From an uncultured Alphaproteobacteria bacterium (GTDB taxonomy: Bacteria > Pseudomonadota > Alphaproteobacteria > Rhizobiales > Rhodomicrobiaceae): a stretch of 40,000 nt of DNA. This document shows positions 8,682-34,034 of this stretch, piece by piece. The position numbers were made by a program, and so were the translations under genes. The stretch spans positions 1,392 through 41,391 of the forward strand of contig CAWCTL010000005.1 in NCBI GenBank assembly GCA_963798575.1, in the 5' to 3' direction. Position 1 is the first letter of the stretch; each line of letters opens with the position of its first letter. The notes beneath the pieces are model-generated. The model was not told the DNA's origin, did not search any database, and saw nothing but the letters and a program-made list of their open reading frames with translations.

Positions 8682-8766
8682 GCCCAGATGGCGGAATTGG
8701 TAGACGCACTAGTTTCAGGTACTAGCGCTGCAAGGCGTGGAGGTTCGAGTCCTCTTCTGGGCACCA
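8682..8766 (+). tRNA. tRNA-Leu (anticodon CAG), encoded CCA
   Basis: Acceptor stem GCCCAGA/TCTGGGC. Anticodon arm CTAGT-TTCAGGT-ACTAG (CAG). Long variable arm, T-arm GGAGGTTCGAGTCCTC and terminal ACCA. Closely parallels E. coli tRNA-Leu(CAG). Confidence 0.95.
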
Positions 8767-8955
8767 ATTATCTTTCCGATAACATCCGCTAACAGTCGCG
8801 AACAGCCGTAAGATGCATCACTAGCGTCTGATCTGGCTAGGCTTTTTCCGCAATTTTCAACCGTTGTCATGCGTTGACAACCGCCGCCAGCCGCGCCACT
8901 TTGCGGGTACATTTACCGGCGTATACCCGCAAAACTCATCATACCCGTACCCGCA

Positions 8956-10191
8956 ATGCGCGACAAGCTCACGGATACAGCGATCCGCAACACAAAGCCG
9001 CGGCCGAAAGAATTCAAGCTTTCGGACGGCGGCGGTCTTCATTTGCTCATCCGGCCGAACGGCTCGAAGCTATGGCGCTTCCGTTACCGCTACGATGGAA
9101 AAGAGAGCATGATCGGGCTGGGAAGCTACGAGCTTGGCTCGCCTGATCACGTTCCGCTCGCTATGGCGAGAGAGCGTTGCTTTGATGCGCGCCGCCTTTT
9201 GAATGCGGGGCAAAATCCGTCGAAGGTTCGCAAAACGCCAGCACTGGCCAGTGGCGCGGCGGACCATCTACCCGGGCACACTTTCGAGAGCGCCGCTCGC
9301 CAGTGGGTGGAATCCCGAAAAAAATCTCTCACACCGAAATATGCGCGGGCGATCAACGGGCGCCTTGAGCGCCTTGTTTTTCCCAAGATTGGCCAGCGGG
9401 ACATCGCAAGCATTACGGCGCCGGATCTGTTGAAGCTAATCAAAGAGATCGAGAAAGAGGCCGTTTATCTCGCAAGGCGGGTGAAAACCATTTGCGGACA
9501 GATTTTCCGGTATGGCGTCGCGCATGGATGGTGCGAGCGCGATCCGAGCCGCGACATCAACGACGGTCTAGCGATGCGGCCACGGGTAAAGCACCGGGCA
9601 TCTCTGAAGGCGAGTGAACTGCCCGATTTCTTCAGCCGGCTAAACCACTATTACGATGGCTACGAGATTACGAAACTTGCAATGCACTTCATCATCCTGA
9701 CGGCGGTCCGGACAGATGAACTCCGCTTTGCGCCCTGGAGCGAAATCGAGAATTTGGAAGGTGAGGCGCCGCTATGGCGAATACCACCGGAGCGCATGAA
9801 GATGACACGGCCCCATTTGGTGCCGCTCGCGCCCCAAGCCGTGGCAATTCTCAAGCGAGCCCGCACCCTTTACCCCGAGTCGAAGCTTATTTTTCCAAGC
9901 CAAGAGAGCCGCACCGGCTTTATGAGCGAGAACTGTCTCCTCTATGCGATCTATCACCTCGGTTTCAAGGGCAAGGCGACCGTCCACGGCTTCAGGAGCA
10001 CGTTCAGCACAGTTTTGAATGAGAACGGCTTTAGCAGCGACTGGATAGAGCTGCAGCTTGCGCATTCAGAAAATAACGACGTGAGGGCTGCTTATAACGC
10101 GGCGCAATGGCTTCCGCAGCGGCGGGAAATGCTGGAATGGTGGGCGGCCTACCTTGATAAACACGCAAGTTACGCCGAAACTACGCAATAG
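8956..10191 (+). CDS. int: Tyrosine integrase, P4-type with DUF4102 arm-binding N-terminus
   Basis: N-terminus LTDTAIRNTKPRPKEFKLSDGGGLHLLIRPNGSKLWRFRYRY is the DUF4102 signature. C-terminal catalytic region has HGFRSTFST...LAHSE...AYN. Confidence 0.9.
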   Translation: MRDKLTDTAIRNTKPRPKEFKLSDGGGLHLLIRPNGSKLWRFRYRYDGKESMIGLGSYELGSPDHVPLAMARERCFDARRLLNAGQNPSKVRKTPALASGAADHLPGHTFESAARQWVESRKKSLTPKYARAINGRLERLVFPKIGQRDIASITAPDLLKLIKEIEKEAVYLARRVKTICGQIFRYGVAHGWCERDPSRDINDGLAMRPRVKHRASLKASELPDFFSRLNHYYDGYEITKLAMHFIILTAVRTDELRFAPWSEIENLEGEAPLWRIPPERMKMTRPHLVPLAPQAVAILKRARTLYPESKLIFPSQESRTGFMSENCLLYAIYHLGFKGKATVHGFRSTFSTVLNENGFSSDWIELQLAHSENNDVRAAYNAAQWLPQRREMLEWWAAYLDKHASYAETTQ

Positions 10192-10364
10192 ACATGTACA
10201 ATACGTTTTATGTGCGTAGTATACTTTAGGTAGTTATCGAGTATTAGTGGAGGATTTTCGATTATTCGTGCAGTGTTTATAAAAAATGTAGACTTTTTTT
10301 CTTGCATTCGCTGTCCTGAATTGGCACATTCCGCCAGTAGTCAAATTTAGGTCGAGCAAAAACG

Positions 10365-10652
10365 ATGAAAGTCCAGGAAGATCAAAACCACCCAGTTCGC
10401 GACCGAATCCTGCGCCAGGCCGCGGTCGAGGCCAAGGTTGGGTTCAAAAAGACGAAGCTTTTCTATCAAATCGCTGAAGGAAATTTTCCCAAACCAATCG
10501 CTATTGGGCCGCGATCCGTCGGGTGGCGCGAATCTGAGATCGATGCGTGGATCGCAAAACTTCCGCGGGCCGGCCGCCAGAACGCCATTCTCGATAAGGC
10601 GCGGGCGGCTCGTCGCTGTAATCGTAATAATCAAGCAACTCCGGCCGCATAA
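10365..10652 (+). CDS. alpA: AlpA-family excisionase / transcriptional regulator
   Basis: ILRQAAVEAKVGFKKTKLFYQIAEGNFPKPIAIGPRSVGWRESEIDAWI matches the AlpA/MerR-type HTH. An AT-rich promoter region lies upstream (10192-10364). Confidence 0.8.
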   Translation: MKVQEDQNHPVRDRILRQAAVEAKVGFKKTKLFYQIAEGNFPKPIAIGPRSVGWRESEIDAWIAKLPRAGRQNAILDKARAARRCNRNNQATPAA

Positions 10653-10773
10653 GGCACAAAACCGCTATGCGCGCACCGGTCAAGCAGGCCAGCCACTGTG
10701 GCCCACTGTGCCAATGCGTGCAGCTCAAAGCTTTTCCCGAGCGAGCCGAGGTGCAATCAAGAGGAACGGTCAA

Positions 10774-11073
10774 ATGGTCTTCAACGAATCACTGCGGCGC
10801 CCCTCAAAAAAACAGAAACAGGCGACGGCCACTGTGGAGGCCACACCGGCAAGCCGCTGTGAGCGCTGTGCTAGCCGCGCTCCGCTCCCGGCCTATCTCT
10901 GCATTAAGTTTCCTGACGGCGGCATCTGGCAGCGCGTCGGAGTCCGCGGCTCCTGGGCCGTTCGCAGGCATCTCGACATCTTGGCGGGCAAGGGCTTTTT
11001 GAAGCAACGTCGATACCGGAAGCCGCGCGACATTGCGCCGAATGAAGGGGGAGGCGGCGCGCTCGCCGCATAG
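10774..11073 (+). CDS. Hypothetical small protein (possible winged-helix / Cys-pair)
   Basis: This is the 3' part of track ORF 10438..11073; the 5' part overlaps alpA out of frame. ATG at 10774 with GAGGA 8 nt upstream and GC-rich third positions. No recognisable family. Confidence 0.4.
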   Translation: MVFNESLRRPSKKQKQATATVEATPASRCERCASRAPLPAYLCIKFPDGGIWQRVGVRGSWAVRRHLDILAGKGFLKQRRYRKPRDIAPNEGGGGALAA

Positions 11074-32312: not shown

Positions 32313-32598
32313 GCGGGCTACCCAGCGCGCCCCCTTCCTAGAGGGACCCTAAATGCGGGTGTGTGCGTACCAGCCCGGGGCAGGCGCGGCGGGAACCGTT
32401 TCATCCCCCGGCAGGGCCTCTTTCTCCGGCCCCGTGAATATCGAAGGCGAAAGACCCAAACCTGACATGTATTCCTCCGGGGACCTGCTCAAGATTGGGC
32501 CAAACGAACCCTAACGGGAGGGCTCCGCTAAGGCGGGAGACAAGCAACCCAATGCCTCCTATTTGAACGTCAGCGAGGATTTTAAGCCGAACATTCTG

Positions 32599-32628
32599 TA
32601 TCTTTTCTACTTTCTGCATCTTTTCTAC
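32599..32628. repeat. Iteron/operator-like direct repeats
   Basis: ATCTTTTCTAC at 32600-32610 and 32618-32628, in an AT-rich patch of a 614-nt ORF-poor gap. Confidence 0.35.
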
Positions 32629-32876
32629 GCACACTGTCATACGAACTTTCCGTTCCACCAAGAAGTTACTCGCCTACGCTTCTAGCGATAGCGGCTAAGC
32701 TTAGGGCGCGCCTAGAGTCCGCGTCAATGTCAGGTGATAGGATTTGCCAATGTATGTGGCATAATCGCTACAGCCAAGCCGCAGGTCCGGCTTCACAACG
32801 TTTCCATGTTGAGCGATGCTAGGCACGGTGTGAGGCGGCCCACGCCGGTGAGAGGCGGGACGCTTAGGGGGGAAAG

Positions 32877-33221
32877 ATGAGTGTAGCGTTTCTGATCGTA
32901 CTTGCGTTCGCTCTAAGCTTTATGTTCGGGCGGCTGTTCGGCAATAAGACAAAACGCATGGTGGCGAAATTGGAGCAGATCATGATGACGATGGAGGCCG
33001 CAGCCAAAGCTGGGAACTTGGAGGTGCTCCACCACGCGACGCGGCAGCAACTTAACGTTTTGCATTGGTTGCATATCGAAGGTGAGTGGCCGGAGGAGCG
33101 CGTCATGGAGTTCATCGAGAAGCGCGGGCTGGTTCGCTCTCCCCACGACCCCGCCGTTCATGCCCTTTTAGTTGAGACGGTGCGCAAGGCGGAACAGCGA
33201 TATGGGCTGGCGGGTCAATGA
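32877..33221 (+). CDS. Hypothetical small protein with an N-terminal TM helix
   Basis: MSVAFLIVLAFALSFMFGRLF, with GGGGGAAAG upstream. ATGA overlap with the next gene. Confidence 0.55.
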   Translation: MSVAFLIVLAFALSFMFGRLFGNKTKRMVAKLEQIMMTMEAAAKAGNLEVLHHATRQQLNVLHWLHIEGEWPEERVMEFIEKRGLVRSPHDPAVHALLVETVRKAEQRYGLAGQ

Positions 33222-33907
33222 CGCAGCGTCAAGCCCCTCAGGGACAGGACTACCAGCCCGACCCATTCGAGGTCCAGATTGCAGCGCTGGTGATCCTCTA
33301 CCGGAGCGAGTTTCTAGGCCACGACCGCAGCACCTTTGCGGAGCTTATTAGCCTGTCCAAAGACTGTCTCGACTACGGGAGGCGATTGGAGAAGCTAAGC
33401 GGAAAACCATCGCCATTTGACCCGCACGCCAAGGAGGAAGCCACCCCGGCAGTGGTCTTCTTTGAGAGCGATGAGTTCGTAGGCCACACCCAGCATGTCC
33501 CGAAGCCTTCAATCGGGATGGAGATCAGGCACTTCCGCCTGATGCCGCGTGCTGAGGCCGAAAGGTCGCAGCTTGGCCCGACACCGGCGGCGGCTCGCTC
33601 GCTTGCTGTTGTCTCCCTCATTCAACATCCCCGCATGGCCTGGGAGGTCTTGCATGCAGAGACCAGGGAGCACCGCCGCCGTCAGGGCATTGGAACCATG
33701 CTTTACGACCGGATTGCCGCCTTCCTCGACACAAAGCTTTGGCCTTCCGGCTGGCTGTCGGACGATGGCTATCGCTTTTGGCAGAAGCGGAACGGCGAAG
33801 CCGTCCAGTGGCATCGCCAGCTCGACTATTTGCCGGGGCTGTGGCTCAGTCCGAAGCAGCTCCTAACCTTACAGGCCATCGCTGAGGCAAAGCTGGCGTT
33901 GGCATAG
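33218..33907 (+). CDS. Hypothetical protein with a weak GNAT-like motif
   Basis: HRRRQGIGTMLYDRIAAFL resembles GNAT motif A (R/Q-x-x-G-x-G/A). The assignment is tentative. Confidence 0.55.
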   Translation: MTQRQAPQGQDYQPDPFEVQIAALVILYRSEFLGHDRSTFAELISLSKDCLDYGRRLEKLSGKPSPFDPHAKEEATPAVVFFESDEFVGHTQHVPKPSIGMEIRHFRLMPRAEAERSQLGPTPAAARSLAVVSLIQHPRMAWEVLHAETREHRRRQGIGTMLYDRIAAFLDTKLWPSGWLSDDGYRFWQKRNGEAVQWHRQLDYLPGLWLSPKQLLTLQAIAEAKLALA

Positions 33908-34015
33908 ACGGCGGCCTTCACCACGGTTGCCTTTGGAACACGGAGCTGGTACACATTCTTAATCGAGGAAGCGAAAAAGGGCTTGTGGATCAGTGGGTAA
34001 GATGTGATCGGCCTA

Positions 34016-34034
34016 AGTCCTCTTCTGGGCACCA
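34016..34034. repeat. att-type repeat: third copy of the tRNA-Leu 3' end
   Basis: AGTCCTCTTCTGGGCACCA (19 nt) is identical to the tRNA 3' end. An integrase stub starts 86 bp downstream. Confidence 0.8.

Follow-up and report, generated by a model that had tools for sequence, protein, structure and literature searches.

Stacked islands at the 3′ end of a single tRNA-Leu(CAG) gene in an uncultured member of the Rhodomicrobiaceae

Tandem accretion of genomic islands at tRNA genes is a known and ordinary phenomenon. The Islander catalogue holds 125 arrays of at least two islands, and 4 of at least three, among 3919 islands (PMC4383910). In the tRNA gene (tDNA) arrays described by Islander and TIGER, an intact tDNA is found at one end, co-oriented fragments of its 3′ end follow, each member has its own integrase, and integration takes place at the 3′ terminus (PMC4383910). 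Accretion has also been described for integrative and conjugative elements (ICEs), integrative and mobilizable elements (IMEs) and cis-mobilizable elements (CIMEs; Pavlovic et al., 2004 and Bellanger et al., 2011, as reviewed in PMC5704250). According to that review, the integrases encoded by functional elements in tandem are as a rule distantly related but similar in specificity (PMC5704250). In this study, we analyzed a stretch of 40,000 nucleotides (the window) on contig C5 of the 4.98-Mb assembly (G000) of an uncultured bacterium of the family Rhodomicrobiaceae. Two islands (islands 1 and 2) and what is left of a third element (element 3) lie in tandem behind one tRNA-Leu(CAG) gene in the window, a clean and unusually well-documented example of such an array. 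The coordinates of the features are given in Table 1.

The tRNA-Leu(CAG) gene is the single tRNA gene detected in the window by ARAGORN and Rfam, and the only tRNA-Leu(CAG) gene of the genome. Its 3′-terminal 16-mer, CCTCTTCTGGGCACCA, covers, as read from the tRNA sequence, the 3′ strands of the T stem and of the acceptor stem, together with the discriminator base and CCA. Exact copies start at positions 8751, 24785 and 34019, all on the plus strand. This confirms a preliminary description of the sequence, in which the tRNA end was said to occur three times, with 16 nt at the second copy and 19 nt at the third. Each copy is followed by a co-oriented integrase gene; the start codons lie 189, 87 and 85 nt from copies 1, 2 and 3, respectively, within the limit of about 190 bp given before. 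The shortness of the repeat is the one point in favor of the 16- to 19-mers being chance matches or duplication products unrelated to the integrases, and this explanation has practically no probability. In shuffled sequences 0.03 matches per window were expected with two mismatches allowed, and no further copy was found on either strand of the genome. The shared orientation of the copies, with an integrase after each, recurs in five other genomes, and the junction in strains that lack island 1 (see below) falls inside the core.

The spacing from core to core is 16,034 bp between copies 1 and 2 and 9,234 bp between copies 2 and 3. Islands 1 and 2 thereby match the two complete islands of about 16 and 9.2 kb that had been proposed; of the decayed third island that was to follow them, only about 0.4 kb survives, namely core copy 3 and some 104 integrase codons. 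As in Islander arrays, the intact tRNA gene stands at one end, and islands 1 and 2 are each delimited by a co-oriented 3′ tDNA fragment and possess their own full-length integrase genes (Int1 and Int2). No such fragment delimits element 3, which is counted as a remnant and not as a member of the array because its integrase is only a truncated stub. The truncated integrase and missing distal fragment at the third position, and the uncultured host lineage, distinguish this locus from the Islander and TIGER arrays.

It is very likely that the array arose as one element after another integrated site-specifically at the 3′ end of this one tRNA gene. The excised circle of each element would carry an attachment site (attP) containing the last 16-19 nt of the tRNA, with the integrase gene adjacent, and the tyrosine integrase of the element would recombine attP with the tRNA end. 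Element DNA would thereby restore the tRNA, whose original 3′ end would be displaced and persist as a fragment at the distal end of the element. An element arriving later would use the restored tRNA and push the earlier elements outward, giving the order element 3, island 2, island 1. Island 1 is the latest addition, or one still moving, because strains of the species show the precise island-1-minus state. That island 2 preceded island 1, and element 3 island 2, we infer from where they lie and from the decayed state of element 3.

Conspecific assemblies were found by exact-protein look-ups. A check of strains for presence or absence of each island had been suggested in the preliminary description; island 1 proved to be variable, and island 2 was present in all conspecific contigs seen. 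Island 1 is missing from L173 (a 1.25-Mb ENA contig) and from L178/L185 (an NCBI assembly). L173 and L178 align at 99.6-99.98% identity to window positions 1-8766 and 24785-36504, with the 16-bp core as the exact overlap of the two alignments. An intact tRNA-Leu(CAG) was detected by ARAGORN immediately before Int2 in these contigs, which show the precise island-1-minus state with its junction inside the core. For island 1, presence and absence with a junction at the repeat, as used by Islander, are thus both observed. At eight other conspecific places island 1 precedes Int2. The first base of core copy 2 is also where two more contigs start, which is the pattern that a fork in the assembly graph of a mixed population would give. 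A metagenome scan with Int2 returned only relatives of at most 48% identity and no strain-level variants.

Island 1 was also found in another species. Contig C62 of genome G038 carries it at its own tRNA-Leu(CAG), without island 2 or the stub, and a second 16-mer lies 16.8 kb past the tRNA end, followed by core genes. The tRNA and island 1 are 98.9% identical between the two species over 15,240 bp, whereas the flanking GST and epimerase genes are 77% identical. This difference shows that island 1 was recently transferred horizontally between the species, as a unit and with exactly those ends that were predicted. The right end of island 1 (its last 0.8-1.6 kb; 23866-24707) is not homologous to G038, and the arm next to the right attachment site (attR) is recognizably related. 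The non-homologous part includes, at 24089-24400, a small repeat protein with paralogues on contigs C9 and C18. In ten congeners, tRNA-Leu(CAG) directly follows an orthologue of the epimerase gene (window 4098-5174), and the content downstream differs in each species; no Int1 or Int2 homologue was found within 20 kb of tRNA-Leu(CAG) in these ten species. In all, eleven species of the genus have neither island within 20 kb of this tRNA gene or have a different island there. The region is therefore not conserved core; a conserved core without polymorphism was what the preliminary description had named as evidence against accreted islands.

Composite transfer of accreted tandems has been documented (PMC5704250), and the whole 25-kb region might accordingly have come in, and still move, as a single composite element, its internal att copies being relics. 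We regard this as most improbable, although composite excision between core copies 1 and 3 might take place at present. A composite origin is largely refuted by the occurrence of island 1 alone in G038 and of island 2 with the stub, without island 1, in L173 and L178; moreover, the DNA of island 2 was not found in the other 38 genomes of the genus, except for resolvase-like pieces. Hardly more probable is a fossil array of old, fixed insertions with inactive integrases, in which the island-1-minus contigs would be assembly collapses across the repeat. The apparently uniform presence of island 2 would fit such an array, as would the cargo genes that are frameshifted or deleted in some conspecific strains. 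A 16-bp repeat is, however, shorter than typical assembler k-mers, and the same junction is present in two independent assemblies, in one of them within the 1.25-Mb contig. The two contigs that begin exactly at core copy 2 also speak against a collapse. A fossil array is further contradicted by the identity values of island 1 and its flanks in G038, which require a recent transfer, and by the integrases: Int1 and Int2 are full length, and the catalytic residues of Int2 are complete.

Some observations weigh against repeated integration into the tRNA gene. No polymorphism of island 2 was seen, and all conspecific contigs that bear the stub also hold island 2. The absence of island 1 from L173 and L178 could reflect excision or a site into which it was never inserted. 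No excisionase-like gene was recognized among the scanned open reading frames (ORFs) of island 2. No far end of element 3 was recovered, contig C5 has no fourth att copy with up to three mismatches, and the history of the locus is only partly reconstructed. Finally, a block of core genes that abuts the tRNA or the island in genomes G038, G004 and G005 is inverted here and located about 40 kb from the stub (G000:C5:75939-82647), that is, 35-41 kb beyond the window; the downstream core genes of G038 are 75-77% identical to this block (C5 82647-75939). A large inversion or rearrangement must therefore have one of its ends close to the tRNA hotspot.

The integrase of element 3 is represented by an 87-codon ORF ending in TAGTAG, and homology reads through to about codon 104 (residue 122 of Int2), near position 34431. 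It had been claimed that the second and third integrases are homologous and share leader sequence. Both indeed match DUF6538, the stub is 37% identical to the Int2 N-terminus, and blocks of leader sequence are common to the two genes. An integrase of Microvirga ossetica, also at tRNA-Leu(CAG), has an N-terminus with 57% identity to the stub and an almost identical leader. The Microvirga locus (CP016616.1, L203; 9832-11964) consists of an epimerase gene, tRNA-Leu(CAG), a DUF6538 integrase gene, a degenerate tRNA-end fragment and a 96-aa DUF6538 stub, and is another stacked, decayed array at tRNA-Leu(CAG) in a distant genus.

Downstream of the stub lies a radical-SAM gene fragment, whose intact counterpart on contig C2 adjoins a NiFe hydrogenase gene. 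The fragment marks the site of the deletion or rearrangement by which element 3 was truncated. An inversion that carried the rest of element 3 to the other breakpoint was considered and is unsupported: no C-terminal piece of integrase 3 was found by tblastn in the whole genome. In the conspecific assembly L182, the stub continues into the C2-type radical-SAM copy and then into a NiFe hydrogenase/hyp cluster, which reflects either genuine recombination across the 465-bp repeat or an assembly chimera. A number of short contigs end at 34467-34499, within this 465-bp radical-SAM repeat. The rearranged stretch includes a Cyc2-like cytochrome cluster (35012-39843), of which contig C1 carries a paralogue with 69% identity.

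According to the preliminary description, two unrelated integrase families had used the same core. The families are distinct and the core is the same; "unrelated" is too strong, because the catalytic domain PF00589 is common to both. Int1 and Int2 have no significant pairwise similarity (BLASTP E = 0.16), and their N-terminal DNA-binding domains differ. Three tyrosine-integrase lineages from two families have used this core. Distantly related integrases of one specificity and decay of older members are likewise features of ICE and IME accretion (PMC5704250). The assignment of Int1 to the P4/DUF4102 type was supported by Pfam, in which this domain is now named Arm-DNA-bind_3. The scores of the arm-binding (82 bits), central (97 bits) and catalytic (53 bits) domains all exceed the Pfam cut-offs. 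Homologues of Int1 adjoin tRNA genes at 24 of 29 loci, three of which are Leu-CAG.

Int2 and the stub belong to the DUF6538 tyrosine recombinases (Pfam PF20172), which in alphaproteobacterial annotation appear only as "integrase," "XerD" or "DUF6538 protein"; no mention of DUF6538 was found in the literature searched. Residues R384, K415, H482, R485, H508 and Y517 of Int2 are invariant in an alignment with 13 homologues (14 sequences) and make up the catalytic set R-K-H-R-H/W-Y of tyrosine recombinases; Int2 may still be active at present. In 300 genomes of the order, DUF6538 homologues of Int2 were located 85-100 nt downstream of a co-oriented tRNA gene at 27 of 29 loci. The targets among the genomic loci include Leu-CAG (11), Phe (6), Thr-GGT (5) and others. 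A co-oriented tRNA gene also accompanies 30 of the 42 metagenomic homologues with a readable N-terminus, and more than 1400 relatives were found at E ≤ 1e-30. The 16-mer has a second copy 13.6-20.3 kb downstream in G031, G152 and G138. In G324, which is from another genus, the 16-mer occurs three times and bounds first a 43.6-kb island with an integrase of the P4 type and then a 14.3-kb DUF6538 island; this is the one other genome with the same tandem of P4 and DUF6538 types.

A paired motif was detected in the leaders of the DUF6538 integrase genes. At 66 loci, a motif of about 8-10 nt occurs twice in direct orientation within the 25 nt before the start codon. The spacing is 13 nt, the copy nearer the gene ends at the ATG, and both copies co-vary between loci. 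GTACA occurs in the leader at 28 of the 66 loci, compared with 1% of background windows. In all five mapped DUF6538 islands, including island 2, the locus-specific variant of the leader recurs 70-85 nt before the attR core. Within the window, GGTACAC has three matches where 1.4 are expected, which alone is not significant; the motif gains its meaning from its position and from the co-variation across loci. Island 1 has a comparable arrangement, with four GGGTAY motifs before Int1 and two GGGTAC motifs before core copy 2 (Table 1). The simplest reading of all these motifs is that they are sites for arm-type binding of the integrase, placed on either arm of attP. If they are, both islands would still have complete recombination sites.

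As a tentative proposal, to which we give somewhat less than an even chance, DUF6538 integrases may form a large alphaproteobacterial clade specific for tRNA 3′ ends, with the N-terminal DUF6538 as the arm-binding domain. This domain would recognize a motif of about 10 nt that is specific to the locus (here CTGGTACACA). Two copies of it, with a spacing of 13 nt, overlap the ribosome-binding site and the start codon of the integrase gene itself, and a third lies about 70-85 nt away across the core. The motif would co-vary with the integrase, and a serine-recombinase cassette would be exchanged between such backbones in either orientation.

The possibility of cassette exchange is raised by a sister of island 2 in the same genome. 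This 7.7-kb sister island (G000:C2:440892-448631) is located at tRNA-Thr(CGT), is bounded by a 17-nt direct repeat and encodes a DUF6538-type integrase that is only 33-37% identical to Int2. It has in common with island 2 a cassette of about 6.6 kb at 77-94% DNA identity, inverted relative to the integrase. The same cassette beside a divergent integrase and in the opposite orientation suggests that it has been swapped, with its own serine recombinase, between integrase backbones. In island 2, 48-nt direct repeats that are 83% identical (26542-26589 and 32263-32310) enclose 5.7 kb with the serine recombinase gene; they were found neither in the sister island nor elsewhere in the genome. Island 2 gave no matches to phage structural genes.

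Integrase-AlpA islands of the P4/CP4-57 type occur at tRNA genes such as leuX in Escherichia coli. Island 1 has the same layout, with a three-domain integrase beside the tRNA, followed by an AlpA-family protein and a replication protein, and an att core that is the tRNA 3′ end. The AlpA-family protein is a likely excision or regulatory partner of Int1, and the replicase-family gene suggests that excised island 1 replicates. Unlike in P4, genes for capsid size or helper control and phage structural genes were undetected, and a search with PHROGs returned no phage structural or satellite-specific genes in island 1, which does not class with P4-like satellites. Its cargo has a nested module with a recombinase and an SNF2-family helicase, also present in the G038 copy. 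Assignment of this helicase to a named defense protein was attempted; similarity to DrmD, BrxH, ZorD and DpdE in PADLOC/NCBIfam is partial and below the cut-off, and it was left unassigned. In the conspecific contigs L196 and L202, a deletion of about 1.8 kb (20045-21837) affects the helicase gene, and in others two ORFs take the place of the single gene. Part of the population thus shows decay of this cargo gene. No matches to relaxase, coupling protein or type IV secretion families were found with Pfam, NCBIfam and PHROGs among the ORFs of islands 1 and 2, many of which match nothing, so that a novel relaxase may be among them. Since these genes were undetected, the islands are not recognizable as ICEs or IMEs, and in this they differ from the accreted elements reviewed in PMC5704250.

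Upstream of the tRNA, positions 5322-8549 hold a 1075-aa fused methyltransferase/WbsX/RgpF glycosyltransferase gene, with a GC content of 47-52% compared with about 60% elsewhere. The gap between the epimerase gene and the tRNA is only about 100-250 bp in the ten congeners and in G038, and because the tRNA follows the epimerase gene so closely there, the fusion gene is an insertion. It has no integrase of its own and is present in all conspecific strains. An intergenic repeat of about 125 bp (3187-3313) occurs in many copies, 74-80% identical, here and in several congeners, and is probably a REP/MITE-like element. Window positions 1-318 match G000:C2:1555696-1556013 at 99% identity and sites scattered over the genomes of congeners at 76-87%; the gene at this position is an IS91-family (Y2_Tnp) transposase in conspecific contigs.

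Table 1. Features of the tRNA-Leu(CAG) array and their positions in the window
Feature	Position	Strand	Remarks
tRNA-Leu(CAG)	8682-8766	+	ARAGORN and Rfam RF00005, 53 bits
Core copy 1, left attachment site (attL) of island 1	8748/8751-8766	+	last 16-19 nt of tRNA-Leu(CAG)
Island 1	8767-24800	+	16,034 bp including one core copy; ends are core copies 1 and 2
Four GGGTAY motifs, candidate Int1 arm sites, attL side	8905-8952	.	just upstream of the Int1 start codon
Int1, P4-type tyrosine integrase	8956-10191	+	Pfam Arm-DNA-bind_3 (formerly DUF4102), Phage_int_M, Phage_integrase
AlpA-family small DNA-binding protein	10365-10652	+	PF05930, 63.5 bits
Replicase-family protein	11335-12570	+	PF03090
Gp49/HigB-like toxin and HTH antitoxin pair	16834-17575	+	in island 1
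Nested module	17961-23525	-	flanking 23-nt direct repeats, 87% identical
SNF2-family helicase, nested module	18046-21765		
133-aa protein, nested module	21977-22378		
XerC/D-like tyrosine recombinase, nested module	22385-23350		
MqsA-like HTH protein	23559-23807		in island 1
Two GGGTAC motifs, candidate Int1 arm sites, attR side	24709-24726	+	60-75 nt before core copy 2; kept in G038
Core copy 2, attR of island 1 and attL of island 2	24785-24800	+	16 nt exact
Island 2	24801-34034	+	9,234 bp including one core copy; related islands elsewhere bounded alike
Int2 leader motif pair (CTGGTACACA ... GCACACA directly before ATG), candidate arm sites	24864-24887	+	overlaps ribosome-binding site
Int2, DUF6538-type tyrosine integrase	24888-26504	+	Pfam DUF6538 and Phage_integrase
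Cargo cassette, about 6.6 kb	26607-33207	+	DNA match to sister island on C2
Serine recombinase, island 2 cargo	29215-29949		
ParB-like HTH protein, island 2 cargo	31393-32262		
Second CTGGTACACA copy, candidate arm site, attR side	33946-33955	+	73 nt before core copy 3
Core copy 3, attR of island 2 and surviving attL of element 3	34016-34034	+	19 nt
Integrase 3 stub	34120-34431	+	DUF6538 only, 63 bits, on ORF 34120-34383
Radical-SAM gene 3′ fragment, frameshifted	34434-34880	+	90% identical to intact C2:946860-947325

The understanding of island accretion is unchanged by these results, since tandems with distantly related integrases of the same specificity had already been described. Exact ends were obtained for two mobile islands in an uncultured bacterium, one of which, island 1, is polymorphic within the species and has recently been exchanged with a species whose flanking core genes are about 77% identical. 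The only new details concern the DUF6538 integrases: their position next to tRNA 3′ ends and the paired, co-varying motifs in their leaders come from the present analysis and not from published work. These comparisons of genomes and metagenomes provide a first functional context for an unstudied group of integrases, with a probable preference for tRNA 3′ ends and candidate arm sites. If the proposed role of the DUF6538 domain is true, it would imply autoregulation of the integrase and offer a simple rule for reading the attP of DUF6538 elements.

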